Shown piece by piece: positions 1 through 38,479 of a stretch of 64,000 nucleotides of DNA. The stretch is from Mesotaenium endlicherianum (Eukaryota), in the NCBI GenBank assembly GCA_009602735.1, contig WELA01003378.1:189712-253711 (forward strand), written 5' to 3'. A model generated the notes under the pieces. The model was not told the origin of the DNA, did not search any database, and saw nothing but the letters and a program-made list of their open reading frames with translations. Each line of letters opens with the position of its first letter. The stretch's first letter is position 1. The position numbers and the translations under genes are program-made.

Positions 1-1411
1 GCAGGCTGAAGATGAAGAACAGAGGAGAATCAGCAGCTACCGCTACACAGTGCTGGGCAAGGGCTTTGATCTGCTAGAGGAGGCCTTCAAGTATGCCCAG
101 AGAAGTCGCAGTGAGTCGCAAACGGAAATCCTCCTGAAGGAAGGGGAGACATCCGAGAACTTTGACAAGTATATAGAGGTCAGCACAGGGCTCCTCCTCT
201 ACCACGATTACGCCAGGATGGTAGGATATACGGTCAAAGAGGCCAAGGCAATGGCCCAGGTGGACGAAGCAGGGGCTGTCTCGATTCCTGGTATCTGGGG
301 GGAGGATAGGGTCATCAGGATGATCCCCATGGACGCGGACAGCTTCAAGGACTCAACACCCCAGAACAGGTTCAAGGCCATGTACAATGAGGTGGAGAGG
401 AGGAGCTGGGAATTCTTGGCCAGGGAAACAAGTCAGCTGGACTTTGCAGGGCACTGGTACCCTTGAACTCTTAAAAAGACAGACGCTGCCTTCTTCCAAA
501 AGCCCACTGATTGGCAGTGGATGACCATCAACATGGGGGACCAGCAGAATGAAAGGGCGACAGAAGAGGATTTCTTGACAGACCTAAAGGGGAACATAGT
601 ATTGCCCCCTCACATTGCGGCTTGGGACCCACGATTGGATGGAGTCAGAGACTGCATGAGCCAAGAGATGTAGGGGGACAGAAGCAGGGCCCGAGAATCA
701 TTCTCCAAAGGGAAGCACGCTTATGCCAAATGGGCAAGTAAGCAGGGGGAAAAGGACCTCTATGCGGTCCGGACTCAGCAGCCCCCACCAGCACCCAAAA
801 GTGGAAGGTCAGTAGGATATTCTTTTTCTCGGGAAGAGCTGGAGCAGCTGACAGAAGAGACCCCAGAAGTCTCAGAGGAACCCGGGGGCGGCGAGGAGGA
901 GGAGTCAGAGGAAGACGAGGAGGAAGGCGAGGCGCAGGACACTAGCCCCGCCGTGATCCTGACACCTGCCACATCCCCTGTAAGGGGGAACACGGGGTTG
1001 GCCCTGCAGCAACTTGCTGAAGAGGAGGATATCACTTGGCTGGGGACTGCCAGAGGACAAAGCCCATCTCCAGGCAAGGAGACCCAGTCAGAAAGGGCAG
1101 ACAGGAGGGCTGCTCGGGAGATAGCCAGAGGCCTGCCAGCATCTCCCTCGCAGAGAGGGCATGTACCCTTGGCTCATGTCATGCAACATCCTTCTGGGAT
1201 GCCGGTATACGTACCTGTCAGTTTGAGGGCTGCCCAGGAGAAGGCTGCCTCCCTTCAGTTTCAGACTGTGCAGGAGGAAACAGCCCAGTTATTGCGTTCT
1301 CCGCTAGGTCCTTACACGGAATCTCCTTCTCTGACAGGCTTCAGAAGACCCCAAGACAGGAGGAGGTCTGGCTCCCCTGAGTATAGGGCCTCAGGGACAT
1401 CTTCCTCCTAA
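1..1411 (+). pseudogene. Family A extra (post-pol) ORF, 5'-truncated by the window, with in-frame stops
   Basis: Translation (LGKGFDLLEEAFKYAQR...RGHVPLAHVMQHP) is near-identical to 49399-51096; stops at 464-466 and 671-673. Confidence 0.85.
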
Positions 1412-1483
1412 GGGCAGGAGGCTGGGGACAAGAGGGACAGCACGCTGTTATTAGTGTTAGTGTTGTCGAGGCGACAACATGAT

Positions 1484-1524
1484 AAGTTGGAGGGATTGTA
1501 ATGAATCAGTATATTGGTTGACAT
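1484..1524 (+). mobile_element. Family A polypurine tract and first ~28 nt of a 3' LTR, truncated
   Basis: AAGTTGGAGGGAT (1484-1496) then TGTAATGAATCAGTATATTGGTTGACAT; the sequence then switches to family B 3' sequence. Confidence 0.85.
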
Positions 1525-2839
1525 CTGACTTGAAGGTGTTGACTAGTCTGCCTTCACATGTGTAAGACCTGACTTGACGCGCCGAGACGTCGCTTTTTTT
1601 GGCGGGGGGATGATGTAGTGATTTGAGTTATTATGTATTAGTTTGCATATATTTTAATATTTTCAAATATATTTGGAGTAATATTGTGTGGATTCAAGTG
1701 TGAATAGGTACTCTAGTGACTTGGTTCATGTCCTTTGAACCTTCTAAGGCATTTTTGAAGTTAGAGGAAAGACCTAGAAGCACTCCACGTGGCAAAAGTC
1801 AAATGTGCCATTTTAGGTCAAAAGAACATGTGTACATTATTCTAAAAGGAGGTGGCAAGTTTGGGATGTGTTGGGTGCTGTAATGAATCAATATATTGGT
1901 TGACATAATATTCATTTAAATAATATAGTTAAATAAGTTCAGCCTGCTGAACTCTAGTTAATGATCAGTCTGCTGGACTTTATATTTAATATCAGTTGAA
2001 TGACTCGGCCGGAAGTAGCAGGCTGAGGTCACCTTAAGTCAGCTTGCTGACACATTCTTTGACAGCCAGCTGACTTCCGTACTCGGTAGCAGCGAATTGC
2101 CCCGATATGCATCTAAGTGTGGTATGCTAGATGAATGGCCAAATGACATCCCTATGATGGATGGCGATTCGGGATGATGGGAGATGGCGGTGGATTTGGT
2201 TAACCGAGGTCCTACCAACGTGGTTAACTCTCGGGTAGGCGGTGCCATCGCACTGACCGTTGAACAGTAAACTCATTCTATGTACATATGCTAGGCATTG
2301 CTCTCGAGTTCGGCATTCGGAAACGAGGCCAACTCTCTTGTACAGCTTACTGAGAGAGATCTGAATCCAAGGCGAGAAGCCATTGATACGCACTGTCTTC
2401 TAACCTTGCTTATGTATGAGTTTACTGATTGCATTATTGATGCTAGTTTACTCGCATTTGACTTACGAGTGTTGTTCACTGCTAGTGTGTTGTCCTTTTG
2501 CCGTTTAATCAGTTAACGGATAATCCATAAAGATTACTTGCTGATATAAAGATCTTTATTAATTGTTAATCGCTTATTTTGTAAGTCGATTCATTTCAGG
2601 TGCCAACACATCAACATACACCTTCCTAAAAATTACTTATTTAGCAAGTATATAAACAAGAGCTAGAGCATAGAAAGACATTCGAGAATCACTCTTGTAC
2701 TTGCCAAAATCCAGAAATATATTAAATTCCAAGAAGCCATCTCTCTTTCAAGAAGCTACCACTTGTGTTCAAAGATCCTTGTCTTGAATAGATAAAGTAT
2801 TATATTTCACTAAGTACTTCATCTATCTGTTTCACTACA
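1525..2839 (+). mobile_element. Family B 3' end remnant: 3' UTR, PPT and 3' LTR (1614-2839, interrupted by a solo LTR)
   Basis: Matches 45295-45889; LTR termini TGTAGTG...TTTCACTACA; G-run PPT just before 1614. Confidence 0.9.
1879..2598 (+). mobile_element. Family A solo LTR (720 bp)
   Basis: TGTAATGAATC...ATTCATTTCA flanked by 5-bp TSD GGTGC (1874-1878 and 2599-2603); no PBS or PPT adjacent. Confidence 0.95.
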
Positions 2840-2869
2840 ACGCCCATTCCGTGGTTGCTTTCCCACGAG

Positions 2870-3810
2870 GAGATTACAGTGTTAGACTTGTTTGCGGTAG
2901 TGTCCTCTACAACGGTTGGTCTACTGTAGAGTGGACCCTGTATTGCGCACTATTATCTCTGCGAAGTCAATCCCATTGCACAACTTGCAAGTCAAACGCA
3001 CCTGGCTGCTCCACACCTTGCCTTCCCCACCTTGCTCCCTACATCCGCATATGCCACAACCTATTTTGCACTACGCCACGATATTTGACTCCTACAACAA
3101 GATCACTTGCTTGCCATAGGTCCACTCCACCTTGTCGTCGGCGGTTGGGAGTGTGAGGGTCTTTCTCAGGCTGGTAGCGGCAAGGGGCTTGCCGATCCCC
3201 GTTCCCAATTATTTTATGAGCTGGTTTGGGTCTAAGGTCTCCTTCAGACTTCCCATTCCTCTTCGCTTGCATACTTGCTCAAAAATGTTAAATCCACGGA
3301 TGATGCTCGTGCTCCCATCCGTGCTGACTTCCGCACCATCGCCTCCATTCTGGGGCCCGGTGTTACCCTCGATGCCGCTGCTGTTGGGTCTTACGCCCAC
3401 CATTTGCGGGTGTTTTGGCAAAATTTTGTGCCTCACACTACCCTTGAGCCTATCCTTCACCACATACACTCGCACCCTCCTCGCATCACCGTTTCCTCCA
3501 TCCTGGTCCCTCACCGTTGCCCCATGGAAGTCAGTCGTCCCGACCACTCTTCTTTCTGTCAAGTCAATTTTCCTGGCCACCCTCGGGCCGCATTTCTTAC
3601 CCTCGTCAGCCGTCCCCACGCTTTTGCATTCCGTCACTATGGGCCTGGCATGTTGTTTGATTCCCACACCCTCCCATATGCTGAGCCCTCCCCGTCTAAA
3701 CACGAGCTCATTCTTGATTTTATTCCCCACGCCACTGCCTCTCCTTCCTTATCCTCCGCCCAGCAGTGCCACCTTCTTGGTTGAGTCATGGATATTCATG
3801 CTCTCACATA
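2870..3810 (+). pseudogene. DNA (cytosine-5) methyltransferase domain within Gypsy pol (family E)
   Basis: One frame with several stops reads ITVLDLFA (I), YYLCEVN (II), HDI (III), LVVGGWECEGLSQAG...GLADPRSQLFYEL (IV/V), YLLKNV (VI, degenerate ENV), LDAAAVGSYAHHLRVFWQN (VIII), EPSPSKHELILDF (IX), QQCHLLG*VMD (X). Confidence 0.85.
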
Positions 3811-3994
3811 GCTTTTCTCTGTCCTCCCTGTCCTCAATGCTCGGCTTCCTGACCCTTTCCTCCACATTCCAGCCTACCACTTACATGCTTTTGACTGGGG
3901 GGGGGGGGTTCCGTCAGAATTCTTTACGTCTGCATAGCACTTACAGTCCTCAGACCCCTCATCTGATACTTTCGCATCCAAACCTAAGGACGGC

Positions 3995-5236
3995 TGGGAT
4001 GTGGGTACACAATTAACTAAGGAGGAAACCTTACAATTCACTACAATGCTCGAGCGGAACAAGGCTGTTTTGCACGGTCAGTCATGGATTTAGGAAGGTG
4101 TACGGTATCCCAATTCAATTGATCTCACTACCACAGAACCGGTAATTCTGAGGGACTATTGGCACGCTAAAGTTGAACACGATATTATGCAAGAGAAAGT
4201 TACTGAGTTGTTAAAGGCTGATATAATTGAGAAGTCGATGTCGGATTTTGCGGCTCCCACTGTTATGCCTGCTAAAAAGGACGCAATGGGTGATTATACA
4301 TAAAAACATATGTGTGGGGATTATCGGGGACTTAACGCTGTTACGAAATTGGATCCCTATCCCATGCCCGTGCCCGAGGATATCTTTGATGTTCTTGAGG
4401 ACGCCAGCGTTTTTAGTGTGTTTGACCTGTGTCAGGGGTTCAACCAGATTCTTATTGATCCCAACGTTAAACATAAGACGGCCTTTTGGGCAAATCGTCA
4501 TTTGTACGAGTGGAAGGTCCTGCCGTTTGGGTTAAAGAACGCACCTGCACGTTTCCAGCGCATTATGGATTGAGTGCTTAGTGGGTTGCATTTCGCTCGT
4601 TGTTACATTGATGATGTGCTCATTTTTAGTCGTACGATAGAGGAACACTTGACACACGTGGAACAAGTCATGCAATGCTTGAGATCTGCGGGTTTGAAAT
4701 GTCATCCAGCAAAATGCATGATTGCAACCCTTTCAGTTCCTTACCTTGGTCACCATATTGTCCCCGGGAGGTTAACACCGCAACAAGTTAAAGTCGATGC
4801 TGTTTGCCGACTGCTAGTCCCGACTGATGTGTCTAGGTTGAGGGCCTACATGGGGATCATTGGGTATTATCGTCGTTTTTGCCCTGATTTTAGTGCGATT
4901 GCCGCGCCTTTAAATGAACTTCTAAAGAAGGATGTGCCTTGGGAATGGACTAGTGAACGTCAGGTAGCCTTTGACAAATTGAAGGACCTCCTCTCCTTTG
5001 CTCCTATCTTGCACAACCAGATTATAGTAAGCCATTCTCCCTTCACAGTGGATGGAGTCATCTTGGATTGGGGGCTGTGCTTGCTCACGAGGATGAGGAA
5101 GGTCATGAATATGTTGTCGCTTACGCTAGCCGTAATAACAATTATCCCGCACAAAATTAGCATTCATATGAAGGGAAACGTTTGGCTGCAGTTTGGGCTG
5201 TAGTGCATTTCCGCCCCTACCTCTATGGTACCCACT
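3995..5236 (+). pseudogene. Reverse transcriptase / RNase H (family E)
   Basis: MCGDYRGLN, DLCQGFNQI, LPFGLKNAPARFQR, CYIDDVLIFS, GYYRRF; TGA at 4571 and a frameshift near 5015; ends in RNase H VHFRPYLYGTH. Confidence 0.92.
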
Positions 5237-5956
5237 TGTAATGAATCAATATATTGGATAGATTTAGTACTCATTTAGATATAATAGTTTATATTTAGTA
5301 TGCTGGATTTAAGCGAGCTGGATACTTAATACTTAGTTAAATGACTCAGCCGAAAGCAGTAGGCTAAAGTCCAATAGGTCAGCCTATTGACTGGGGTCAG
5401 CTTGTTGACACATTCTTTGACAGTCAGTTAACTGTCGTACTCGGCAGCAGCGAACTGCCTAGCTACGCATCTAAGTGTGGTGTGCTAGATGAGTGGCCAG
5501 ATGACACCCTTAAGGTGGATGGCGGTTCGAGATGATGGGAGATGGCTGTGGATTTGGTTAGCCAAGGTCCTACCAACGTGGTTAACTCCAGGGTAGGCGG
5601 TGCCATCGCACTTGCCGTTGAACATTAAACTCATTCCATGTACATATGCTAGGTATTGGTCTCGAGTTCGGCATTCGAAAACGAGGCCAACTCTCCGTGA
5701 CTGCATATCGAGAGATATCTGAATCCAAGGAGAGAAGCCATTCATACGCACTGTCTTCTAGCCTTGCTTATGTATGAGTTTGTTGATTGCAATATTGTTG
5801 CTAGTTTACTTGCATTTGACTTGCGAGTATTGTTCACTGCTAGTGTGTTGTCTTTTGGTGTTGAATCAATTAATTGAAAATACCATAAATATAACTCGTT
5901 GATATAGAAATCTTTATTGATTGATAATCGCCTATTTGTAAGTCGATTTGTTTTAG

Positions 5957-5968: not shown

Positions 5969-7329
5969 AGTTATCACAGTAGTCGTGTATGGTAAGGACT
6001 AGGTCTCAAGCTAGCAACTCTCGGGAAATGGAGGGCGAGGACAATGATAACATTGTAGAAGGGCAAGACGAAAGTCGCGTCTTTGGACCCCGTACCTACT
6101 TGGAAACGCTGTACAATGCAGGAGCTAGAGAAGCTGCTGAGCAGGCAGCAGCTCTTGCTGCAGTAGCGGCCCTGCTGGCAGAGGATGAGCGTTTAGCCAA
6201 AGAGGTAGAGGAGGCAGTAAACAAGAGGGCTCCTGATGAAAGGACGGTGAAAGAGCAGATGGCAGAAAGGGCCAATCTCCGAAACCAATCTCCTGCTGTG
6301 CCCATTGTCATACCTCTCGCTCAAATTCGCAGACAGGTAAGCGCAACAAGCATAGCCGGGACAGTAGCAATCGGGAATGCTGAAGCTGCTACTAATCGAG
6401 CTAATGTTGCTGCTGCTGCGTTTGCTGGGCTACCACTTCAGAATGTAGATTTGGGAGCATTATTTGTGCAGATGCAATCACAATCGGCGAGCATGTATCA
6501 GTCCCAACAGGAGGACAAAAGGATCATGATGGCATTGCTGCGTGACAGAGACCAGCTCGATTGTCAAATAACTGGTGGTGGTGGCAGAGGGCCTAGTAAG
6601 CCTAAGCCAAACTTCCCCAGGACTATGATCCTGAGGGAAACAAAAAGTAATACGTGATGAAGTTTCTCGCCCTAGTTTAAAGGTTCGTATACGGCGTACA
6701 CGTGTGGGCGTACAGGTTATTCGTACAATACGTGATGACTGATTCAAACCGGCAATATTCGTCGAACTACGTTGGTGTCGGTCATTAAAATCGTTTTTCA
6801 TTTTTAAAACGTGTGTGGCCGACACCCTTGCGCGAGCCTTTTAAAAGTTTTTCAATTCGGTCCGTCAGAGTCCAGTCATCGCATCACACGTTTTGTGTTT
6901 CACGGAAGACCGTCGTGGCACTAGTTAAGCTAACGGCCGTGCTGATAACGTCGTGCCTTCGTAGCTTAGCAGCCGGCCATGTCTGGCTTCAACACTTCAA
7001 AAAGATGAACCTAGCGGGAAAAGGAACCAAAAGTTAGAACTCGTGTTTCCTTCCCGCTCCACCAAATGTGTGTTCTTCTAACTTTGTTACTCGCGTATCC
7101 AACAGGATACGTATTTTACCACACTTATCTGTCCCCTGTCCAATCACAGAGGGAAGGGAGTTGCTTACAGCAGCATTAGTGGTAGTATCCGCTTACTGAC
7201 AAGCCGCGTACGAATGCATCTGGTAAGGAGTCTCAGCCGAAACTCATACCTCACGTTGAACGCTGTATCTATTACTGCTTTATGGATTTGAGGATCCTCA
7301 CTCTTACTTAGCTCTTCTCATATCCTGCA

Positions 7330-10300
7330 ATGTCTGAACAGGACGTAGACGACATTTATTCAAGTCAATTCGACGACGAGGAGGAATGTGAGCTAGTTAC
7401 TCCCTGCATCACTTCTTGCTTGACATCGGCTGAGAAGGGCAAAACCAACGTCTACCCGATTCTACCCTCAGAGCATGACCACGTTCATAAGGTAGACAAG
7501 CGTGATTCCCCAGGTGCCTACCAAAATAATTGTACGTATTGTGGCCGTATCAACTTGGGAGGTGCATTTAGAATTAGGTACCATTTGGGGTGTGTTCAAG
7601 GGCAAGGAATCGCAGGCTGTCCTCAAGTTCCATCCAACGTTCAGGCTTTCTTTGCTGCCCAGTGCTATGAGAATGATAGGTCTAGATCTTACAAAGTTCC
7701 TCTTGCTCAAATGAAGCTTCTGCAAAAGCGTTCACGTCATGAGCGGACTATGGAGCAGCTGGCATTTGAGAAAGAAATGAAGAGGAGCGGCAATCTTTGC
7801 CCTTCCTTTTCCTCTGGAGGATCTGCTAAAGGTTTTGGTAGGCAAACTGACCTCCCTAAGGTATGGAAACCATGTTTCCGTGATCTAGCAGATCATGCAA
7901 TTGCCAAGTGGTTTTATGCCAATGGCATATCGTTTAATGCTGCCAATTGTGCGTCCTATGGACTCATGCTGGACTCCATATCCCGTGCTGGGCCTAACTA
8001 CTCTGGACCCCAAATGTGGCACCTAAGGACAAAGCTTCTGGATCGGGAAATGGTATGTTGTGACATCGAGCTTCGCCAATTCATGGAGAAGCTAAAAGTC
8101 ACAGCCTGTGTCATATGCTCCAATGGCTGGTAAGTCTTCTGCTACTGCTGCTGCATTGTAGCTTTGCTTTGCTGTTGCTGCTGCTGCTGGCCTGTTGCTT
8201 ACTTTGCTTGTGCTTGCGCTTGTGCTTCTGCTGGTTTTCTCTGCTGCTGTACTCATATATTATGTGCCCTAGGGTTGTGTGCTAGTAGATTGGTTTGCTA
8301 ATCTGCTGCTGCTGTTGTTGTGCTGCTGTGTTGCTGTTGTATTTACCTTATTCTTACCTCGCCTTCTTTTTTCGTGCCTAATAATTTGTTTTTTATTCAT
8401 GTACAGGACCGACATCACCAAAAGACCAATCATCAACTCCATTGTTGTGACTTCCATGGGTGAAAAAATGGTGAAGGCGGTCAACTGTGACGGCAAGTTC
8501 AAGAGTGGCAAGTTTATCGCCAAATGCTTTGAGGAGGTCATAGCAGAGATTGGTGCAGAGCATGTTCTCATGATATGCACAGATTCTGCTAGAGCATGCA
8601 AGAATGCAGGTATGTCCTTTTGTCTTTTTACTTTACTATATCGCGATGTTGTATTGCAAGTATGGAGGCCTGGTTTTGCGTAGTTGTGTTGCTTTGCTTG
8701 CTTTATTTCTATGCTGTGTTGGTGTGAGGCTAATTCTCTTGTGCTGCTGTCACAGAGCTGTGCAATCTAGTGTCAGCTGCTGTGATGCTACTCATTCTTC
8801 CGTGTGCTGTTGCTGTCATGCTGTGGAAGGTAGACTCATAGGAGCTAAGTACCCTGCCATTACGTGGAGTGCGTGTGCGGCACACGGCTTGGACCTCATG
8901 TTGGAAGCTATCGTGAAGATTGATTGGGTTCAACAAACTGTGGAGCGGGCGAGGAATCTTGTGAAATTCATCAGGAACCACCACAAGCCTCTATCTCTCT
9001 GTCGTGAAGAAGGCCAGTTGGAGCTCAAATTACCTAACGCGACGCGATTTCTTACCTCCTTCATCCTCTTGGAGCGGCTGAATAAAGTATGCATTCAACT
9101 TATGAAGCGATGCTTGTGCTGACCTCATGCATGCTACTCACACTACATTTAGCAAAGGGCCTCCACGTTGCTTTAATGTGCTTTTGCTTGTGTTGCTGCT
9201 GTAGTTCAGTAAGTGCTGCTTTGAGGTGCTAATGTTCTGCTGTTGGCTTGATATGGTGTGCTGCTGTGATGTGTCTGCTGGCTCTCTCTCTGTCGTGCTT
9301 GCTGTCTTGGGTGGTTAGCTGGTTTGTTGTGCTGCTGCTTTTCTCTCCTCTCCTTTGTCTCTCTTCTCACTCTCTCTCTCCCTCTCTCTCTTGCTTGCCT
9401 TCTTGGCTCGTTTCTGGTCTGTTGGTCTGCTGGTCTTCACTCTCCTCTCCTCTCCCTCCCCTCTCACTCTCTGGCTGGTTTTCTATTTTGCTCGTCTGCT
9501 GGTTCTCTCTCTCCTCTCTCCTCTCTCTCTGTCGCTTGCTTGTTGGCTGCTCTCTTGGTTCTCCTCTCCTTTCTCTCTCTCCTCTCTTTTGCTCGTATGC
9601 TCGGCTGGTTTGCAGGTCTGCAGGTTTGCTGGTTGTCACTCTCCTCTCCTTCCTCTCTCCTCTCCTCTCTCCCTTTCCCTCTCTCTCACTCCCTTGCTTG
9701 CTCGCTTGTCTAATCTGTTGGTTCTCCCTCCTATCTCTCCGCTCTTCTCTCTCTCCTCTCTCTCTTTCCCGCTTTCTTGGCTGGTCTGATGCTTTGCTGG
9801 TTGCTTCTCTCCTCTTCTTTCTCTCTCTCCTCTCCTCTCTCCTCTCTCCTCTTGCTCTTCTCTCCTCTCTCTCTGTCGCTTTTTTGCTTGGATGCTCTGT
9901 TTGTTCTCCTCTCTTCCCTCTCTCCCTCTTCTCTTCCTCGCTTGCTTGGCCGATCTGCAGGTCAGCTGGTTGTATCTCTCCTCTCATTCCTCTCTTTTCT
10001 TCTCTCTCTCTCTTTCTTCTATCTCTCTTTGGCAATCTCTCTCCCTCTTCCTGGCTTTGTTGGCTTGTTTTCAGGTTGGCAGTGTGATGGTTCTTACTTG
10101 GCTTGTTTTCTGTTCTGCTGGTTTGCTGGTCCTCTCTCTCCTCTCTCCCCTTCTCCTCTCTCCCCTCTCTTCTTGTCGCTTGCTTGCTTGGCCGCTCTGT
10201 TGGGTCTCTCCTTCCTCTCTTCTCGCTTGCTTGCTTGGCTGCTCTGTTGGTCCTGTCCTTTCTCTCTCCTCTCTCTTGCTCGCTTGCTTGGCTGGTCTGG

Positions 10301-12275
10301 AAGTATGCCGGACCTCTCTCCTCTCCCCTCGCTCTCTCTTTATCGCTTGCTTGCTTGGCTGCTGTGCTGGTTCTCCCCTCCTTTCTCTCTCCTCTCCCTT
10401 GCTCGCCTGCTTGGCTGCTCTATAGATCTGCTGGTTTTCTCTCTCCTCTCTTCTCTCTCCCCCTCCCTCTCACCCTCTTTTTTGCTTGCTTGCTTGTCTA
10501 GTCTGTTGGTTCTCCTCTCTCTCCTCTCTCCTCTCTCTCTCCTCTCTCCCTTGCTCGCTTTTTGGTCTGGTCTGCAGGTTTGCTCGTTGTCTATCTCCTC
10601 TCCTTTCCCTCTTTCGGAGTCTCTCCTCTCTGTTCTCTGGCTCTCTTTCGCCCTCTTGCTCAATTTCTTGGCTGATTTTGAAGTCTGGTGGTCTGCTGGT
10701 CCTCTCTCTCCCCTCTCTCCTCTTTCTCCTCTCTCTCTCTCTTGCTCGCGCTGTCGCCTGGTATTGACGCCTACTGGTGTGCTGGTCCTTTCTCTCCTCT
10801 CTCTCCTCTCTCCTCTCTCTCTCTCTCTTGCCCACGTTGTCGGCTGCTTCTGAAGTCTGGTGGTCTGCTGGTCCCGTCTCCTGTCACTCCTCTCTCCTCT
10901 CTCTCTCTCTTGCCCAAGTTGTCGGCTAGTTTTGAGGTCTGCTGGTATGCTGGTTCTTCTCTCTTGCTCGCTTGCTTGGCCGGTCTGCTGGTCTACTGGT
11001 TCTCTCTCCTCTCTCCTCTCTTTCTCTCCCCCTCTCTCTCCATTGCTTGCTTTCTTGGCTGGTTTGCAGGTCTGCTGGTCTGCTGCCTCTCTCTCCTCTC
11101 CTTTCTCTCTCTCTTCTCTGTCCCTCTCCCCCTCTCTCACTCTTGCTTGCTTTCTTCGTTGGTTTTCAGGTCTGCTGTTCTGCTGTTCTGCTGGTCTGCT
11201 GTTCTGCTGGCTCTCTCTCTCCTCTCTCTCCTCTCTTCCTCTCTCTCCTCACTCTCTCACTCTCTATTGCTATATTTTGTCCCGACTGTGTTGTTGTGCT
11301 TCTCCTTGTCGCCACTAATAGTGGGCTACATCTGTGTTCCTCGTGATACTGCAGGTGAAAGAGGGCTTGAAGTGCATGGTGGCCAGAGATGCTTGGACCC
11401 AGTGGAAGGACAAGCTCTCTCTTGATGAGTATGCGAAGTGCAACGAGCGTACTCAATGCATCAACGACCCCGTCGTTTGGAAGCAAGTGGAGAAGATCAT
11501 CAAGTTGGTGGAGCGGATCGTGCAGCTGCTTCGACTATGTGACGGGGTCCAGCTTGTCATTGGGCAGGTGTGGTGTAAGCTGTGTGACTACGTGAAGTTC
11601 ATCAAGAAGCTTCCTGGCTTTACCGCTGCGGAGAGGAACTTCTTTGTGGACCTTGTCCAAGATAGGTGGGACTTTTTTCACTCACCTATGCACGCAGCTG
11701 GCTATGTTTTGCACCCTCAATACCAGGACCATGCCCAGCATAGTGTGAAAGAGGTTAAGGCTGGGTGGAATTTGATTTTGGAGCGTTTGGTGCCTCACAA
11801 GGCTGACAGAAAGGTCATAAAGGAGCAGGTGAGGGTGTATCTGGCTAAGTAAGGAAGCTTTGCTGCTCCAGATGCTGATGATGATTGCACAGAACTTAGT
11901 GCTCCTGCATGGTGGCATGAGTATGGTTCTAGCACTCTTGAGCTGCAAGAGCTTGCCATTAAGGTCTTAGGCCTGTGTACGTCAGCGAGCTCTTGTGAGC
12001 GTAACTGGTCTGAGTATGACTTTGTGCATAACAAGAAGCGGAATCGTCAAACACAGGTTAGAGCTGTGAAGTTGGTTAACGTCCATTCCAACCTTCGCCT
12101 ATTGGAAGGCAAGAGGCGTGCGGGTAAAGAACCTGTGCCTGAGAGGTTCATTGAGGCTTACATTCAAGCAGAGGAGGGTGCTTTTGAGAATCCTGAAGAA
12201 GATGCACTAGATAGTGAGTCATGGCCCCTAGTAGAGGAGCCAGAATACTTCTCTAACGATGATCCATGTGAGTAG
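7330..12275 (+). pseudogene. hAT transposase (BED-like finger, DUF659-like core, C-terminal dimerisation domain); exons 7330-8129, 8407-8609, 8830-9086, 11355-12275
   Basis: CTYC...YHL...C; ICSNGW|TD; ICTDSA; CAAHGLDL; TRF; HAAGYVLHP; WWHEYG...ELQELAIKVL...SASSCERNWS. GT-AG introns keep phase. In-frame TAA at 11850-11852, and the usual DGW reads NGW. Confidence 0.92.
9250..11270 (+). repeat. Composite CT-rich microsatellite-like repeat in transposase intron 3
   Basis: (CT)n tracts alternating with TTGCTTGCTTGGCTGG and CTGCTGGT modules. Confidence 0.9.
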
Positions 12276-12459
12276 TAGCGTCGTACTTCACAGTTTAAAG
12301 TGCTCGCATATGTGAGGTCATTTAGGTTACTTTGCATTGACAGTGTAGGCTTTCATAGTCATTAGTTGAGTATTACTTTCATTACCATGTGGTGTAATAA
12401 TACCATTTTCCATAATTCTATGTACATAATTCCGACATTTTTTATAAATCCTCCATAAT

Positions 12460-12465
12460 TTGTCT

Positions 12466-12519
<54 letters not shown>

Positions 12520-13143
12520 TTGCTTGCTTGGCTAATATGCAAGTCTGCAGGTCTGTTGCCTCTCTTCTCTCTATCTCCCTCTTGCTTGCTTGCTTGGCTG
12601 ATCTGCTGGTTTTCTCTCCTCTCTCACACCTCCTCTCTATTTCTCTCTTTCCTCTGTCCCCTCTCTCCCTCTATGTCTCTCTGGCTTGCTTGCTTGGATG
12701 AGTTGCTGGTCTGCTGGTTTGCCGGTCCGCCGTCTCTCTCCTCTCTGTCTCTCACTCTCTCTTTCTATCTCCCTCTTGCTTTCTTGCTTGGCTGGTTTGC
12801 TGGTCTGCTCTCTCTCACTCTTTCTCTCTCTCTCTTGTCTCTCTCTCGCCCCCCCCTCCCTCTCTCTCCTCTCTCCCTCTATGTGTCTCTTGCTTGCTTG
12901 CTTGGCTAATCTGGTGGTCGGCTGGTATGCCGTCTCTCTCCCCTCTCTCTCTCTCCCTTGCTTGCTTGCCTGCCCAGCCTGCTGGTTCTCTCGCGTCTCT
13001 CCCTTCTCTCTCTTTCTCTCTCTCTCTCTCTTGCTTGCCTTGTCTGCTGATTTGGAGGTTTGCTCTCTCCTCTCTCGCTCAGCCTATATTATTGTTTGCT
13101 TGCTTGGGTGGTCCACTCGTTCTCTCTCCTCTCTCTCTCTTGC
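12460..13143 (+). repeat. Same composite CT-rich repeat downstream of the transposase stop
   Basis: Pure (CT)n at ~12473-12515 followed by the same modules. Confidence 0.9.
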
Positions 13144-14299
13144 TAGTGCATAGCATCTCTTAAATACCTAATCATCTTCATATTGTGCAGTCTAATGTTA
13201 TTGAGTATGAGATAATAGTTTTAATGCATACTCATTTAAGAGGCTAAGCTAAAGAGAATACAGCAAACACATATTAGTTTACTATAGGCTAAAAGCTAGT
13301 ATAGGATGAAGAGAAGCTGTGATTAATTGACAATTTCACTCGACGCGTGAAATTATGATACGACAAAGAAGTCTCAATAGTGCCAATAACAAACAATGAA
13401 CGACATGAGCGCTACATTGTAAATCAGTTAGACCTAAGGTCATATTTTCCTAATGGAACTTGCTTGCAGGCCTTACAGCTATCCTCCAGCTACAAGTGTG
13501 ACAACAAACTGGTACTTGGGCATAAGAGCATAGTGCGCGCACTCTCTCCAAGACTGCCCACATTATCCCCCCAAAGGACATAAACACATAAGACAAATAT
13601 TCATGCCATCGGAGGGCAAATATTACAGAATTGTGCAAAAGTCAAAAAGCCATATAGAGCCCAAAGTCCCGTACACTAAAGAGTACACCAAAGCAAAGCA
13701 AAGCAGAGTAGAGCACTGCAGATGCATGCTGATATTAGAACTATGAAACACATGCAAAAGAGAAAGTCTCAGAGTGTGTCGTGACGTACCTCGTCAAAAT
13801 GTTGTCAAATAAGACAGGCTGGTCTGGCAAGGAGTACACGACCACATGCGTCACACTTGGTGATGGGTCCGTTGCCAAGCACCCTCCGTACATAACCACC
13901 TCAAGTGACAATTGCCGCAGCGTCATTGCATCAACAGCTTGAAAGTGGGGGTTGCTGCATGTGAAGAGGTTGCACAGGTTCTGCATAATCAAGCATCAAA
14001 GCAAAAGAAGCAAGAGTAGCACAATACACAGCAGCACAACACAGCACAGCAAAGAAGAGCAAGACAGCAGCACAAACACAGCAGCAGCAGGTGCAAAGCA
14101 ACCTAGGCACACAGCAGAACACCAACATCCCCTAGCAGCAGCAGGTGCAAAGAAGCCTAGCAGCACGGCAGAACAGCAGCACCCCCTCGCAGCATAACAC
14201 CACAGCAGAAGGAAAATACCACAGCAATATTGCAGCAGCAAAGCAAGGTAGCAAGCAGAGAGCACGGCTCAACAGTACCATAGCAGCAGCGGCACAACG

Positions 14300-16866
14300 A
14301 ATGCGTAAGAGAGAGAGAGAGGAGAGAGAGAAAGGACAGAAGAGGACCAACAAGCAACTAAGCAAGCATGCAATAGAGAGAGAGAGGAGAGAAGGGAGAG
14401 AGAACCAGTAGCCAACAGGACCTGAAAACCAGCCAAGAAAGCGAGCAAACAAGAGAGGGCGAGAGGGGCAGAGAGGAGAGAGAGAGAGGAGAGAGAGGAG
14501 AGAGGAGAAGGAGGACCAACGAACCAGCAGAGTAGACAAGCAAGCAAGCAAGGGAGAGAGAGAAAGAGAAAGAGACCAGCGGGGGGGGGAGAGAGGGACA
14601 ACTAGCAGATCAGCCAAGCAGCGAAGCAAGAGAAACAGAACCACCAGACCAACAGACGTCAAAACCAGCCAACAAAGCGAGCAAGCATGAGGGAGAAAGG
14701 GCATACAAGCAAACCAACATCACAAAGAGAGAGAAGAGACGCAAGAGAGCACCACCAACCCACAATACCTAAAGAAAATTGCCAAGAGAGCAAGCAAGAC
14801 AGAGAGTGGGAGAGAGAGATAGGGGAGAGAGGAGAGAGAGGCCAGCAGACCAGCAGACCTAAAAACCAACCAAGAAAGCAAGCAAGAGAAAGAGGAAGGC
14901 AGAGAGAGGGAGAGAGAGGCGAGAGACAAAGGAGAGAAGAGAGAGAACCAGCAGACCAGCAAACTTGCAAAACCAGCCAAGAAAGCAAGCAAGAGAGAGG
15001 GGGGGGGAGAGAGAGAGGGAGAGGCGAGGAGAGAGAACCAGCACACCAGCAGACCAGAAGAGTAACGAAGCAAGCAAGCAAGGGAGAAAGAGAGAGATAG
15101 AGAGAAAGAGAAAGAGAGAGACTGAGGGGGAGGGGAGAGAGGAGGGAAGTGGGACAACCAGCAGAGGAGAGATCCGGCCAAGCAACAAGCAAGAGAGACA
15201 AAACTAGCAGCTGAGCAGACCTCAAAACCAGCCGAAAAAAGCGAGTACGAGTGATGGACAGAGAGCACCCAAGTAAGCAACATGAAAGAGAGAGACCGAA
15301 GAGAGGAGAGAGAGAACCACCAGCTCACCGGACCAAAAACCAGCCAAGAAAGCAACTAGGACAGAGAGGGGGAGAGAGAGAAGGGGAGAGAGAGAGGAGA
15401 GAGAGGACCAGCGGACCAGCAAACCAGAACACCAACCCAGAAAGAAAGCAAGAGAGAGAGGGGGGAGAGAGGGAGAGTGGAGAGAGAGAAAGGAGAGGAG
15501 GGAAAGAACAAGCACACCACCAAGCCTCCAACACCAGCGACGAAAGCCAGAAAGAGAGATAGGGGGGAAGAGAGAGAGGGGGGGGCGAGNNNNNNNNNNN
15601 NNNNNNNNNNNNNNNNNNNNNNNNNNNNNNNNNNNNNNNNNNNNNNNNNNNNNNNNNNNNNNNNNNNNNNNNNNNNNNNNNNNNNNNNNNNNNNNNNNNN
15701 NNNNNNNNNNNNNNNNNNNNNNNNNNNNNNNNNNNNNNNNNNNNNNNNNNNNNNNNNNNNNNNNNNNNNNNNNNNNNNNNNNNNNNNNNNNNNNNNNNNN
15801 NNNNNNNNNNNNNNNNNNNNNNNNNNNNNNNNNNNNNNNNNNNNNNNNNNNNNNNNNNNNNNNNNNNNNNNNNNNNNNNNNNNNNNNNNNNNNNNNNNNN
15901 NNNNNNNNNNNNNNNNNNNNNNNNNNNNNNNNNNNNNNNNNNNNNNNNNNNNNNNNNNNNNNNNNNNNNNNNNNNNNNNNNNNNNNNNNNNNNNNNNNNN
16001 NNNNNNNNNNNNNNNNNNNNNNNNNNNNNNNNNNNNNNNNNNNNNNNNNNNNNNNNNNNNNNNNNNNNNNNNNNNNNNNNNNNNNNNNNNNNNNNNNNNN
16101 NNNNNNNNNNNNNNNNNNNNNNNNNNNNNNNNNNNNNNNNNNNNNNNNNNNNNNNNNNNNNNNNNNNNNNNNNNNNNNNNNNNNNNNNNNNNNNNNNNNN
16201 NNNNNNNNNNNNNNNNNNNNNNNNNNNNNNNNNNNNNNNNNNNNNNNNNNNNNNNNNNNNNNNNNNNNNNNNNNNNNNNNNNNNNNNNNNNNNNNNNNNN
16301 NNNNNNNNGGGGGGGAGAGAGAGAGGAGAGAGAGGCAAGAAAGATGAGAGAAGACGAGCGGACCAGCGAACCAGCAGATCTGAAAACCAACCAAGAAAGC
16401 AAGCAAGAGAGAGGGGGAGAGAGGGAGAGAGGAGAGAGAAAAAGAACCAGCAGAACAGCAAACTTGCAAAATCAGCCAAGAAAGCAAGCAAGAAAGAGAG
16501 GGGGGGAGAGAGAGAGGAGAGAGAGGCAAGAAAGATGAGAGAAGACGAGCGGACCAGCGAACCAGCAGATCTGAAAACCAACCAAGAAAGCAAGCAAGAG
16601 AGAGGGGGAGAAAGGGAGAGAGAGGAGAGAGAGAAAAAGAACCAGCAGACCAGCAAACCTGCAAAATCAGCCAAGAAAGCAAGCAAGAGAGAGAGGGGGG
16701 GAGAGAGAGAGGAGAGAGAGGCAAGAGAGACGAGAGAGGACGAGCGGACCAGCGAACCAGCAGATCTGAAAACCAACCAAGAAAGCAAGCAAGAGAGAGG
16801 GGAAGANNNNNNNNNNNNNNNNNNNNNNNNNNNNNNNNNNNNNNNNNNNNNNNNNNNNNNNNNNNN

Positions 16867-16911
<45 letters not shown>

Positions 16912-17100
16912 AACAGACCAGCCAAGCAAGCAAGAAAGAGAGAAGAACCAGCATACGAGCAGACCTCAAAACCAGCCAACAACGTGAGCAACAAAGAGAG
17001 AGAGGAGAGAGAGGAGGAGACCACTAGACCAGCCAAGCAAGCGAGCAAGAGATAAAAAGACAACCAGCAGACCCAGGACCTGATAACCAGCCAAAAAAGC
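14300..17100 (-). repeat. Composite CT-rich repeat (GA-rich on +) in the LIG4-fragment intron; includes ~190-bp tandem units at 16309-16805
   Basis: Reverse complement of the modules seen at 9250-11270; the unit containing GACGAGCGGACCAGCGAACCAGCAGATCTGAAAACCAACC recurs three times. Confidence 0.9.
15590..16308. other. Assembly gap (N run); a second gap lies at 16807-16866
   Basis: N bases inside the GA-rich repeat. Confidence 1.
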
Positions 17101-21938: not shown

Positions 21939-24900
21939 CTATGACCTTACATCATCCCCTTCCTCAAGATGCGACGTCCTCGACGCATACTGCAGATAAC
22001 GTCTCAACTTACTCCTACAATGAGTCAAGTTGGCCTCTGGCTCCCAAGTGTTGTCGTTCGCATGGTAGCCTTTCCACTTGACCAGATACTCTTGGACAAA
22101 TCGTTGACCTCGTTTCACTCGTGGATCGCCGAGAATCGCCTCCACTTCATACTCCAACACATCATCGATCTCGACCGGTGGTGGCGGTGTAGGTAGTCGT
22201 CCTGGATGTCCTTCATTCGGGTCAACGTATGGCCGCAGACAACTGACATGGAACACAGCATGGATACGCCTGCCTGAAAGAAGGTCCAACTTGTAGGCCA
22301 CTGGATCCACCTGCTTGAGCAGTACAAAGGGACCTGTAAACCGTGCCCGCAATTTCCTCTTGCCTGTGAAAGGTAGGTTCTCTGTGGACAAGAGTGCTTT
22401 GTCGCCCACATGGACTGTCACTTCCCTCCTGTGCTTGTGAGCATGCTTGACCTGCTCTTCGTGTTCCTTCCGAATACACGTCTTCGCCATATGCCAAGTG
22501 TTGGCCACCTGCTCCATAAAAGCTTGTGTAGTAGGAACCTGAGTCTCCTTGGCCTTCTCCAACAAGATGTTCCCTGGATGATATACTTCTCGCCCATAAA
22601 CCATAGCGTATGGTGACTGCTTGGTCAATCCCTGCATACTGTTGTTGTAGGCAAACTCCAATCCTGGCAGCTTCCTGTCCCACTCTGAAGGGTCTTCCAT
22701 AGTGAAACTCCTGAGCACCTCTTGCAAAGTTCTGTTGAGCCTCTCACTCTGCCCGTCTGTTTGAAGATTATAGGAAGTGCTCATACTCAGCTTGTTCCTC
22801 ATCAAAGTAAACAATGACCGCCAAAAGTTGCCAGTAAACCTTGGATCTCGATCTGAAACAATCTCCTTCGGCAACCCATGTAGCCTGAAAATATGATCAA
22901 AGAATAGCCGTGCCACATCCGCTGCCGTAGAAGTTTCCTTTATGGGAATGAAGTAAGCCATCTTGCTGAGTCGATCAGACACAACCCATACTGCATCATG
23001 CCCTTGATCACTCATTGGTAAAGATGTGATGAAGTCCATACCAATTTGCTCCCAAGGATACTCTGGAAAAGGCAGGGGTTGCAATGTACCTCCCTTCTTT
23101 TGATTTGGTGTCTTGTTTCTCTGGCACGCATCGCAACTCTTGATCCACTCCTCGATGTTCTTGTCCATAGTTCTCCAGTAGTATTCCCGTTTCAGCACGC
23201 TTGCCGTCTTCTCGCTTCCAAAGTGTCCAGCATATAAGCAGTCATGATGCTCCGCAAGTAGTGAGTCACGTAGCTCCTTGCTGTCAGGTACCACAACTCT
23301 GTTCAAATCACCATAATACCATATGCCATCCTTCTTCTGCATACTCGAGTTGGACTCAGCTGCTCCACCATCAGCAAACTCTGGGTCCTCCTCATAACCT
23401 GTTTGAAGCTTCTCCTTGAAGTCCATATTCTCCTTGATGACTAAGACAGCTGTAAGGTCACACCTCCTGGATAAAGCGTCTGCAGGGTTGATCTTCTCAG
23501 GTAAGTACTCAATCTTGTGGTGAAAATGTTGCAGAAACTCCATCCACCTTGCCTGTCTTGGTGTCAACGTTGGCTGCGTCATTAACTTCTCCAAGCTCTT
23601 GTGGTCGGTCTTGATGAACACCCTCCGTCCGTCCACATAACATCGCCAATTCCTCAAAGCCTGAATAATAGCCAACATCTCCCGCTTGTGTGCTGCATAA
23701 TTCTGCTCAGCAAGACTCAACTTCCTGCTCTCGTATGCCACAGGCTGCAATCCCTTGCCCTGGTCCTGGAGAAGAATGGCCCCCACTGCAAAGTTTGATG
23801 CGTCTGTGATGATGGTAAAAGGAAGTTCTGGACTGGCGATTGCCAACAAAGGTGCTTGTGTCAATAACTCCTTAATCCTCTCAAATGCTTGCGGCTCCTT
23901 GTCACCCCATAGCCACTTCTCCTGCTTCTTCAACATGTCCGTGAGCGGTGCACACACCTTGGCAAATCCTTCAATGAAACGTCGATAATAATTCACCATG
24001 CCGAGGAAACTTCTGAGTTGATGAATATCAGCAGGTACCGGCCAATCTCTGACTGCTTGCACCTTCTTCTGCTCCACCTTGACTCCTTCAGCCCCCACTA
24101 TGTGCCCAAGAAACTCGACCTCCTTGAGACAGAAGTCGCACTTGCTCATCTTCCCATATAAATTTTGATCTCTCAAGACCTCCAACACCTTCTTCAAATG
24201 CTCCACATGCTCTTCCAAGGTCTTGGAATAGATTAAGATGTCGTCCAAAAATACCACCACAAACTGGTCCAAGTAGGGCCTGAAGATACTATTCATGAGT
24301 CCCATGAATGTAGCAGGTGCATTAGTCGATCCAGAAGGCATGAATGTGAACTCGAACAAACCATAGCGAGTGCTGAAAGCAATCTTCTGAACGTCTCCTT
24401 CCGCAATCCGTACCTGGTGATAGCCACTCCTCAAATCGATCTTCGAGAAATACTTCGCCCCGACAAGCCTGTCAATCAACTCGTCCACTCGTGAAAGTGG
24501 GTACCTGTTCTTGATGGTGACCTTGTTCAGTGCCCGGTAGTCGACGCACATCCTCATAGTCCCATCCTTCTTCACAAATAAGACTGGCGCTGCAAATGGA
24601 GACTCGCTGGGTCGGATGAATCCCTTCTCCAACAACTCTGTCAGCTGCTTCTTCAACTCATCCAACTTCGCAAACAATTGTCGATAGGCGGGTCTCACTG
24701 GTGGCTTGCTCCCTGGTTCCAACTCAATCTTGTGCCCCATAGCTCTCTGTGGAGGTAATCCTGCAGGTAGCTCCTCAGGAAACACGCACTTGAACTCCTC
24801 CAACAGCGCCTTAATTTGGGCAGGCATCTCAGCAGGCTTCTTCTCTTGAGCAGTTGGGCTCTGCTCCTTCTGAGCAAGGGGATCAGACACCACTACTTGC

Positions 24901-25619
24901 TCCTCCGGCGATGTACATTCGCCCAACCTGTTAGGATTCACGCTTGCTCCATCTGATGACCTGGCCAGGGCCACCGAAACAAGGTACATCTCCTTCACCT
25001 GATTCGCCCTGCATAGCTTCTTAACTTGCAGGCTCGACAGAAGACGATTACTTGTGGTCGTATCTACCTCCACCTGTTTTGCTGTCTCCATTCGACCATC
25101 ATGTCGTTGGACTTTCACTTGTCCTGTGCTCTAGTGCACTTGAGGGTTGGCTTTTCTCAGCCATGGTCGGCCCAATATCACCTCGTGGTGACCTAACTTC
25201 GCCTGCTCCATAACTTCAGTACTCTGGTGCCCCGCTACTTCCACGTGAATAGCTTCCGTAGATGCACCATACTTGAGTCTCTGCCCATTTGCCAAAATTG
25301 CCTCCTTAGGCTCATAATGCTTTTGCACAAAGATTCGCCACTCTTTCACCAGCTTCTTGTGCACAAAGTTTGCACTTGCGCCACTGTCGACCATACACTT
25401 CGCCTTGTTGCCGTCGACCACTCCTTCCACGATGATAGGATTGTCAACATCTCGTCTTTCGCTTCTCGGCAGGCTCCTGGAGATAACCTCCTTGTGAGTT
25501 CTCGTCTTCACGCCAGTAGACACCCCAGAACGTCTTACTGGCGTCCTCCTTTTTCTTGCTGTTGATGTTGCTTCGACTTCAAATGAAAGTCTCGAGCCAG
25601 ATGTCCAAGCTTGCCGCAA
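21939..25619 (-). CDS. pol: Family D pol (protease, RT, RNase H, integrase, chromodomain); one in-frame TAG at 25131-25133
   Basis: [32 protein letters not shown]...CDAC; SDRDPRF; YEVEAIL...YLVKWKGY...TWEPE. Confidence 0.93.
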
Positions 25620-26566: not shown

Positions 26567-27294
26567 AGTATAATATGCAACTAGCCCAGCTCCGATACCA
26601 GATGAAAGGGGCAGAGTGCCCTAGTTGAAGCGTAATAACTCACGAGGAAAAGAGCCAGTTGCAATCATACTAAAGAGTGCAGCGGTATATCACTAAGAAA
26701 GCTTAGGATGGAAGGCCTTGTCATTACCAACCCGTAGAAATTTACAGAAGTGAAAATTGATAAGAAACAAAGTAGTTCTGCCTATTTATAATTTTCTGCC
26801 TAAGTGCTCCTCTCTAGGAGGAAGCTACAGATTTTCCTAAGTGTTCGTCAAATCGTCCGTTCCAGAATATTCGTGAGTAAGCCAGATCAGTATTATTTGA
26901 CGTGTCGGGCCAAATTGCGTCCACATACATGCATCGACATTACTAGAATATTCTGTCTTAGACGCGCTAGGCTAAACCGAAACTTCTAGGTAAATCGACC
27001 TAGTCGGCACTCCGCGTCAGCCGAACTTACGTGAAGGTTCGAGTTCATTCAAACGGGCCAGATCGCTCGACGCTGTCGGTGAATCCGACGGTCGCGCTCA
27101 CCGCGAATTAAGGACAGTCGTCAACCGACCTTAAAACTAACTAAACTTCGGAAATCCATAACTCTATCAATACTTGCCCAAATTCGATGAACTTTATTTT
27201 AAAATGACCACAAAAATGCACTCTATACTACTATACAATCAAAACATACTTTCATGAAACTCAATAACGCACTTTATAAACCTATGACCTTACA

Positions 27295-38115: not shown

Positions 38116-38479
38116 TCTCCTGCGAAAAGGATCTTCCATCCTCACAATGCCTTGCGGCAGCGGGTCTACTCCTGGCATCAAATTGGCAGCAGACTTAACT
38201 GGATAAGGAACTGGCAGCAGCTCTTGCGGGCCACGGTCTCTGTTACTCACAGCTTCCAGTTGCTCCATAATCCGAGGTTGCCCAACCAAGGAAGTTGGCA
38301 TGTTGATGCTGATGTAGCCCTCTTCTTCGCGTTGCATGATGAGGTCATAATTGCCTGGATACCGGTCATTCACACAACAGTCTACCAGTCCGTAGTTTGC
38401 CTCTCCCGAGCAAACCATTTTTACAGGAATTTCTCCTGTTGGTTGCCCATCTGTTGACTGGTAAGTCACCCTCTGCTTC

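Follow-up and report, generated by a model that had tools for sequence, protein, structure and literature searches.

Does the stop-riddled frame upstream of a Ty3/Gypsy reverse transcriptase (RT) in Mesotaenium endlicherianum hide a cytosine methyltransferase and, if so, to which element did that enzyme belong and could this copy still work? We examined this question in a stretch of 64,000 nucleotides (NCBI GenBank assembly GCA_009602735.1, contig WELA01003378.1, positions 189,712 to 253,711 of the forward strand), hereafter the window, in which position 1 is the first letter. The original prediction, made from the letters alone, had read through the stops of one frame and proposed a hidden C5 cytosine methyltransferase in frame with the RT. 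We find that positions 2840-5236 (+) are very probably a decayed, doubly truncated Ty3/Gypsy fragment in which a DNA methyltransferase (DNMT) domain of the DNMT3 type stands directly upstream of the RT in the pol frame, i.e., an element of the kind known as Gypsy-DNMT3 from Klebsormidium nitens. We call this fragment family E, to tell it apart from a second DNMT-Gypsy relic in the same window (family C).

The domain itself is the stop-read-through translation of 2867-3784 (+) (frame position mod 3 = 2), 306 residues long and interrupted by three internal stops (2927, 3086, 3233). Its parts, including the loop that binds S-adenosylmethionine (SAM), are as follows.

2867-3784 (+): DNMT3-type C5 cytosine methyltransferase relic, 306 codons, stops at 2927, 3086, 3233 and 3782
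2879-2908 (+): motif I region (SAM loop), VLDLFAVVSS, degenerate; family consensus [LV]ELFGG[LMI]CAG
3134-3166 (+): motif IV catalytic loop, VVGGWECEGLS; Cys kept, Glu in place of Pro, and the Gln after the Cys changed to Glu
3194-3232 (+): DPRSQLFYELVWV, between motif IV and motif VI, in the same frame
3272-3289 (+): motif VI, YLLKNV; the Glu of ENV changed to Lys
3386-3424 (+): motif VIII, GSYAHHLRVFWQN, of the Dnmt3-type form AHRxRxFWxN; first Arg changed to His
3680-3817 (+): motifs IX-X region, EP..E.E..G and LLG.[..]D.H.L..LF, broken by stops at 3782 and 3809

In the last of these regions the frame reads AEPSPSKHELILDF at 3680-3721 and then QQCHLLG*VMDIHALT*LF at 3761-3817 (asterisks mark stops). 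The order of motifs along the frame is canonical, as had been claimed, with motif I upstream of motif IV, unlike in the rearranged DRM enzymes.

Relatives of the domain were sought with an exhaustive phmmer (HMMER) search against 1.84 billion cluster representatives. This returned 786 matches at E ≤ 1e-3, of which 387 reached E ≤ 1e-10 and 83 reached E ≤ 1e-30; the best had an E-value of 3.9e-45 at 39% identity, and the alignments span residues 3-305 of the domain. PF00145, the Pfam family of C5 methyltransferases, was found at E ≤ 1e-3 in 24 of the 28 top matches scanned and stood above its cut-off in 21 of those 24. A profile built from the window copy and 32 short relatives, searched against the PDB, matched DNMT3A at 1.5e-25, DNMT3B/3C at ~1e-22, plant DRM at 3e-14 to 3e-10 and M.HhaI at 5e-9; judged by these E-values, DNMT3 appears to be the closest of the characterised DNMTs. 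The DNMT3A alignment falls into three stretches, which agree with the motif order read from the frame: motif I; motifs IV-VIII, where DNMT3A motif VIII, SAAHRARYFWGN, aligns to that of the window; and a third stretch (ERVFGFP ... LLGRSWSVPVIRHLF) that corresponds to window motifs IX-X. An AlphaFold2 model of the domain, built with the profile alignment, was confident (predicted local distance difference test, pLDDT, 92.8; predicted template-modelling score, pTM, 0.89), and its top solved Foldseek matches were the catalytic domains of DNMT3A/3B/3C (E 1e-15, template-modelling (TM) scores 0.70/0.74, ~315 columns). These sequence matches and this predicted fold establish a genuine methyltransferase domain of the Dnmt3 type, without the rearrangement of DRM. 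K. nitens Gypsy elements were likewise placed with Dnmt3 in passages of de Mendoza et al. 2018 (PMC5890265).

The original prediction was also right that annotation by open reading frames (ORFs) misses the domain. PF00145 matched none of the 136 window ORFs of ≥90 amino acids (aa) that were scanned (from 175, the 39 in a low-complexity stretch at 8050-17100 having been dropped), and the 182-aa ORF at 3236-3781 was without any match. For that same open ORF the ESM Atlas gave weak leads, 0.81 to PF00145 clusters, under the level that counts. A metagenome-contig search with one of the relatives (P0004) yielded a single 16-residue match (L001) of no use.

What places the domain in a retrotransposon is the frame in which it lies and the order of what follows it.

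2840-5236 (+): surviving DNMT-Gypsy fragment (family E), comprising DNMT, linker, RT and the start of RNase H; 10 in-frame stops, one frameshift
3785-4300 (+): linker between DNMT and RT in the same frame, stops at 3809, 3935 and 4091; collinear with the polyproteins P0158 and P0163
4301-5229 (+): RT and N-terminal part of RNase H; RVT_1 E 2e-29, weak RT_RNaseH_2 start

The DNMT frame continues through WDVGTQLTKEE (3995-4027), the pre-RT linker named in the original prediction, into RVT_1 at E 2e-29; in the Pfam scan, the open ORF 4574-5200 gave RVT_1 at 5.8e-12. Two unnamed public polyproteins from ENA assemblies, P0158/P0027 and P0163/P0029, have the Pfam order CCHC-(protease)-DNMT-RT-RNaseH-integrase and run parallel to the fragment. 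Specifically, residues 965-1659 of P0158/P0027 correspond to 2843-5011 in one frame at 35.5% identity, and residues 1659-1731 to 5008-5229 in another, with a joint E of 5e-135 (tblastn); P0163 aligns likewise. The frameshift of the fragment thus lies near 5011-5015, and the 10 in-frame stops between 2867 and 5236. The claim that a stop-interrupted frame shared with a Gypsy RT conceals a methyltransferase therefore holds, on the shared RVT_1 frame, the 786 homologues, the collinear polyproteins and the DNMT3 fold match. No other family-E piece was found in the 64-kb window by tblastn of the polyproteins.

The fragment is cut at both ends by long terminal repeats (LTRs) of other elements.

1519-2839 (+): unrelated nested insertions removing the 5′ part of the DNMT element (self-BLAST; alignment to the LTRs of the copy at 39209-45889)
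1519-1613 (+): chromovirus internal 3′ end with polypurine tract (alignment to the intact copy)
1614-1878 plus 2599-2839 (+): chromovirus 3′ LTR in two pieces (self-BLAST, LTR alignment)
1879-2599 (+): 720-bp LTR of another, third family (family X), splitting the chromovirus LTR (self-BLAST)
5237-5956 (+): LTR of another element, 81% like 1879-2599 (self-BLAST), with a gag-like ORF at 5983-6654 behind it
39209-45889 (+): intact chromovirus with LTRs at 39209-39711 and 45386-45889, 97.8% alike, flanked by TGCAT on both sides

At the 5′ side, the chromovirus LTR ends in ...TTTCACTACA at 2839, the same end as in all three copies of this LTR. Directly behind that end the intact copy has a sequence resembling a primer-binding site (PBS), GTGGTATCGGAGC, and gag; at 2839 the DNMT frame follows instead. 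The LTR insertion at the 5′ end separated the gag and protease of the DNMT element from the domain, and they are either beyond the window or lost. At the 3′ side, the LTR starting at 5237 cuts the DNMT element inside RNase H, and the P0158 alignment ends at 5229.

Behind its 5′ LTR the intact chromovirus carries this PBS-like GTGGTATCGGAGC; its gag ORF occupies 39740-41026, its pol is open without interruption over 1230 aa (protease-RT-RNaseH-integrase-SH3-chromo), and it is without a DNMT. It may have been recently active. No recorded protein is nearly identical to its pol (40924-44613); among named matches, the best are to Closterium (48%) and assorted land plants. As a separate observation on the insertions, we compared 1-2599 with 49686-51895 and 57579-55420: in the latter two copies the family X interior (1-1524 in the first) is contiguous with the 720-bp LTR, and at 1-2599 a 354-bp segment of chromovirus 3′ end and LTR (1525-1878) stands between family X interior and LTR. 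The first 28 bp of the family X LTR are doubled there (1497-1524 and 1879-1906). Deletion, recombination or an error of assembly could each account for this rearrangement.

Next, we asked whether the window copy stands alone in its host. Host DNA contigs came as four sets from one study, two of which were aligned to the stretch at ≥80% likeness, giving 536 and 538 aligned contigs. By likeness, the 536-contig set comprised 57 contigs at ≥99%, 60 at 95-99%, 141 at 90-95% and 278 at <90%. Per bin, the word depths sum to 389-2696 in the DNMT part and to 1068-3253 in the RT part, compared with ~65-78 for single listed contigs; family E is thus present in tens of host copies, and the repetition extends to its DNMT part. 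Among the contigs are pieces of other copies at 2977-3447, 3436-3881 and 3761-4318, the last of which spans the DNMT end into the RT, so that at least some other copies of this RT family carry the domain. Each listed difference in the DNMT part is supported by 8-22 contigs. Within the 40 best-supported of 726 differences, the residue typical of the family stands in most other copies at amino acids 97 (Gln), 244 (Pro), 252 (Ser) and 279 (Arg), and a sense codon at the window stops 3233 and 3809. The catalytic loop in most other host copies is AGWECQG[HL]S.

On the RNA side, one read aligned to the stretch in a portion (~6%) of one run and 27 reads in a portion (~13%) of a second run; none of the 27 was ≥95% alike, and all lay on 4120-5236. 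The aligned reads are probably from other RT families and neither show nor exclude family-E expression.

Several points weigh against reading 2840-5236 as a DNMT-Gypsy fragment, and they are best considered together with the rival accounts of the locus. The window copy alone scores 20.2 bits against PF00145 (E 4.3e-4), under the cut-off of 22, and a word-index protein search at near length matched none of its 1832 candidates. We attribute the first result to decay and divergence and do not take it as evidence against homology: the family assignment, marginal for this copy, is carried by the homologues, 21/28 of which are above the cut-off. The second is uninformative because the relatives are long polyproteins. 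The sub-threshold score might suggest that the motif resemblance in a stop-riddled frame arose by chance, an account that we regard as refuted by the E-value of 3.9e-45 over the full length in a search of 1.84 billion proteins, by the profile match to DNMT3A and by a confident predicted fold whose best match is DNMT3. Given that the best solved relatives are the cellular DNMT3A/3B/3C, the domain could also be a pseudogene of a host cellular DNMT3 gene lying beside a retrotransposon RT by accident. This is exceedingly improbable: the frame is common to the RT, the collinearity with the polyproteins takes in the linker, the DNMT part occurs in tens of copies, and the closest relatives are polyproteins of transposable elements, with retroelement domains in 24 of the 28 scanned and the other 4 being DNMT-only fragments.

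The own LTRs, gag, protease and integrase of the family-E element are not among the contents of the window, and its nature as an LTR retrotransposon therefore rests on RT homology and on collinearity with foreign polyproteins. The open DNMT frame directly behind the LTR end at 2839 invites another account, in which the DNMT stretch belongs to the chromovirus whose LTR (1614-2839) ends 27 bp upstream, and LTR, DNMT and RT form one gag-less element. We consider this very improbable. In the intact member of that LTR family, a PBS-like site and gag come next to the 5′ LTR, and the protease-RT-RNaseH-integrase-chromo pol is without DNMT; 1519-1613 is an internal 3′ end with a polypurine tract, so that the adjoining LTR is a 3′ LTR; and blastn of 2840-5400 against the chromovirus interior gave no similarity. 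A further point concerns the other copies: the alignment at ≥80% likeness may mix subfamilies, and the DNMT-bearing pieces in it may not speak for every copy of the RT family. We nevertheless retain the decayed DNMT-Gypsy fragment as by far the best account of 2840-5236.

Whether this copy could still work was examined in an alignment of the 117 homologues that cover the domain, out of 150 listed (33 partial ones were left out). Among 53 family-conserved columns (≥80% of homologues), the window copy keeps 35 and has lost 18. It retains the motif IV Cys, present in 117/117 homologues, and has Lys for the ENV Glu (117/117), His for the first motif VIII Arg (117/117) and Val for one motif I Gly (111/117). 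Judging from its sequence, the window copy is an inert relic of a methyltransferase that combines 10 stops and a frameshift with KNV for ENV, the motif VIII Arg-to-His change, the lost motif I Gly and the absence of gag, protease and integrase; it would be no enzyme even without its stops. The original prediction had overlooked both this enzymatic death beyond the stops and the nested-LTR cuts at the two ends. A special signature of methylation-driven decay was considered and rejected: the observed/expected CpG ratio is 0.68 in the DNMT part and 0.49-0.78 elsewhere in the window, which is nothing distinctive.

The catalytic loop had been singled out as GGWECEG rather than the usual PCQ. The reading is correct, and most of the oddity turns out to be typical of the family. 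Before the catalytic Cys, 67 of the 117 homologues have Glu and 41 have Pro, with Ser and Asp in 4 each and Cys in a single one, and their commonest motif IV loop is AGWECQDLS; the motif IV consensus is thus EC more often than PC. The Gln after the Cys, found in 102/117 homologues, is Glu only in the window copy, and 15 contigs of other host copies (95% of aligned depth) read Gln. By this comparison, Trp-Glu-Cys is the usual state of the family and not decay, and the Gln-to-Glu change alone is private to the window copy. The K. nitens representative has Pro-Cys (AGFPCQGFS); Glu-Cys occurs in the representative from Closterium and in the polyproteins nearest to the window copy. Across the 117 homologues the motif IV Cys, the Glu of ENV and the two Arg of motif VIII are invariant or nearly so.

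The family also looks much wider than K. nitens, with the module at two positions in pol. Among the 28 scanned matches, the DNMT stands between gag/protease and RT in 6 and between RNase H and integrase in 18; the other 4 are DNMT-only. Named members of the pre-RT type are from Klebsormidium nitens (GAQ93235.1), Closterium sp. NIES-68 (GJP34393.1) and Closterium NIES-53 (CAI7911866.1); a named member of the post-RNaseH type is the 'pol' KAF8056149.1 of the chlorophyte Scenedesmus sp. PABB004. The RT-RNaseH-DNMT-integrase members often have a C-terminal PHD finger. In particular, P0004, P0007, P0010, P0018, P0021, P0037, P0048 and P0053 show this other pol placement, many of them ending in a PHD finger. 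We computed a FastTree tree of the 117 homologues and the two window copies, a quick method that puts the window copies on long branches, with only tentative immediate neighbours. Both window copies fall on a 23-row side with Klebsormidium and Closterium (Shimodaira-Hasegawa-like (SH-like) support 98), the other 96 rows being a clade with the loop CQD.S. On this tree, Glu and Pro before the Cys have switched at least 12 times.

What does a Glu in this place mean for the enzyme? In C5 methyltransferases the Pro-Cys dipeptide counts as near-invariant, which would favour the view that the lineage is no longer a methyltransferase and that Glu for the motif IV Pro marks a fold kept for a non-catalytic role, e.g., DNA or chromatin binding. 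In all 67 Glu-Cys members, however, the nucleophile Cys, the Glu of ENV and the two motif VIII Arg are conserved at ~30-40% overall identity, and Glu and Pro have interchanged at least 12 times while the catalytic residues stayed put. We favour catalysis because such residue conservation is hard to explain otherwise. A yeast activity assay of the KnitGypsy-Dnmt3 domain detected no methylation and was inconclusive, according to passages of de Mendoza et al. 2018 (PMC5890265); this counts both for a non-catalytic role and as a last point against our overall reading. A non-catalytic lineage thus seems rather unlikely, if a serious contender, and the pattern of conservation suggests that the Glu-Cys loop is likely a working enzyme variant.

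A broader proposal can be made tentatively, as one possibility: that selection maintains G-W-E-C-Q as the regular loop in a huge green-algal/streptophyte clade of retrotransposon Dnmt3. If active, this would be a lineage without the 'invariant' motif IV Pro, with at least 12 Glu/Pro swaps, possibly tuned to an unusual substrate such as nascent cDNA. On this view, the family also reaches far beyond the one K. nitens acquisition reported in 2018, with two insertion points in pol. We found no paper that mentions the Glu-Cys loop, in searches none of which targeted it and which did not extend to the supplementary figures of PMC5890265.

The window holds a second DNMT-Gypsy relic.

34107-38832 (-): second DNMT-Gypsy relic (family C), comprising protease, DNMT, spacer and RT; frameshifted, with many stops (tblastn of P0158)

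Its DNMT motifs read LELFVGLGFG, AGFPCQPFSQAG, FVIENV and HRARLFW, with a canonical FPCQ loop, and the middle piece of the domain alone matches PF00145 at E 2.9e-12 (47.1 bits). The DNMTs of families C and E share 26.7% identity over 172 residues (tblastn), and blastn gave no DNA-level match between the two families. Family E is thus a lineage distinct from family C at the DNA level, as the original prediction had stated, and by sequence the two are old, independent DNMT-Gypsy lineages side by side in one host. A separate observation concerns the family C spacer, which is ~2.3 kb long (DNMT end ~37370, RT start ~35060), where P0158 has ~110 residues; its ORFs at 36163-37041 and 35424-36101 (-) have no Pfam match and no repeat match in the window.

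Overall, the window consists almost entirely of nested LTR retrotransposons. Another largely open Gypsy/chromovirus lies at 21942-26620 (-), where gag is encoded by the ORF 25538-26620, the protease by 25134-25619 and RT-RNaseH-integrase-chromo by a 1063-aa ORF (21942-25130). A long stretch of low complexity, asymmetric between the strands, extends from ~8100 to 17100; one side of it is rich in CT and the other in AG (AT skew between -0.57 and +0.84), and it is made of diverged repeats of ~65-80% identity whose ORFs give Ser/Leu/Pro-rich or Arg/Glu-rich strings. Runs of N occur at 15590-16308, 16807-16866 and 60677, the first two within that stretch.

How such a domain might serve its element can be considered for the intact relatives only. 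Translation in these would yield the domain within Gag-Pol, from which the element's own protease might then free it. The freed domain could methylate cytosines on the element's new cDNA or on host DNA, and this methylation might let the element blend into, or manipulate, the host methylation landscape, a hypothesis put forward in passages of de Mendoza et al. 2018 (PMC5890265). Retrotransposons bearing a host silencing enzyme are parasites stealing epigenetic tools, and few examples have been described so far. The window adds a further host genome with two old DNMT-Gypsy lineages, one of them in tens of copies, and it exposes a large and mostly unnamed family (786 cluster representatives, two architectures) in chlorophytes (Scenedesmus) and streptophytes, including Zygnematophyceae (Closterium). 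Since most members have Glu-Cys for Pro-Cys and keep the other catalytic residues, they pose a testable question on methyltransferase chemistry and targets. The window copy itself is functionless, and its interest is limited to annotation: ORF-based and Pfam-threshold annotation misses such domains. The dominance of Glu-Cys, and the breadth of the family with its two architectures, deserve a specialist look.

How, finally, does the element compare with known systems? The literature that the original prediction had invoked, DNMT-carrying Gypsy elements in Klebsormidium and DNMT retrotransposons in dinoflagellates, bears it out: both KnitGypsy-Dnmt3 and the Symbiodinium elements appear in passages of PMC5890265. 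There, KnitGypsy-Dnmt3 stands for Dnmt3-related domains that are intronless, lie within a Gypsy Pol ORF of K. nitens and show Ka/Ks <0.2, and the SymbioDIRS domains are described as methylating CG de novo (de Mendoza et al. 2018). A part of a later preprint cites 'streptophytes (Gypsy-DNMT3)' as previously described (bioRxiv 10.64898/2026.05.21.726589). A literature search on Closterium, DNMT3 and retrotransposons found no paper, and a broader one on DNMTs encoded by transposable elements in green algae returned nothing relevant among the matches listed.

By its sequence, the window element belongs to the Gypsy-DNMT3 kind described in 2018. Like KnitGypsy-Dnmt3 as presented in those passages, it has a Dnmt3-type, unrearranged domain in a Ty3/Gypsy Pol, where the protease is followed by the DNMT, and a tblastn alignment of 322 residues between the K. 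nitens protein GAQ93235.1 (P0025; CCHC-protease-DNMT) and 2873-3826 has 33% identity (E 1e-40). Unlike KnitGypsy-Dnmt3, which is set apart by this identity of 33% and has Pro-Cys, the window lineage has Trp-Glu-Cys, and the window copy is dead and truncated. No phmmer match exceeded 39% identity to the window domain. Of similar build are P0158/P0027, P0163/P0029 and the Closterium proteins GJP34393.1 and CAI7911866.1, which share the order CCHC-protease-DNMT-RT-RNaseH-integrase and the loop AGWECQG[HL]S and are collinear with 2843-5229; they differ in having open frames, whereas that of the window is broken, and in an identity of 35-37%. The RT-RNaseH-DNMT-integrase-PHD polyproteins (KAF8056149.1) also have a homologous DNMT (E 1e-33 class) within a Gypsy pol, but carry it after RNase H, with a C-terminal PHD finger and the loop CQD.S, and form the separate 96-row clade (SH-like 98).

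Further afield, the retrotransposons SymbioDIRS-Dnmt3 and SymbioLINE-Dnmt of Symbiodinium (passages of PMC5890265) and the EpiLTRs of Euglena and Cymbomonas (passages of 10.64898/2026.05.21.726589) resemble the window element in bearing a captured cytosine methyltransferase; they are described there as independent acquisitions, and they differ from the window element in retrotransposon class or in the origin of the DNMT (which in the EpiLTRs has a DNMT4-like sister). The mammalian DNMT3A/3B/3C (PDB 6w89, 2qrv, 6kdl, 8tci) share with the window domain the predicted fold (TM 0.70/0.74), the motif order, motif VIII in the form AHRxRxFWxN and motif X in the form LLG...(V/I)..L. At 18-20% identity to these enzymes, the window domain differs from them in being no cellular gene, in being without PWWP and ADD domains, and in having Glu-Cys where they have Pro-Cys.

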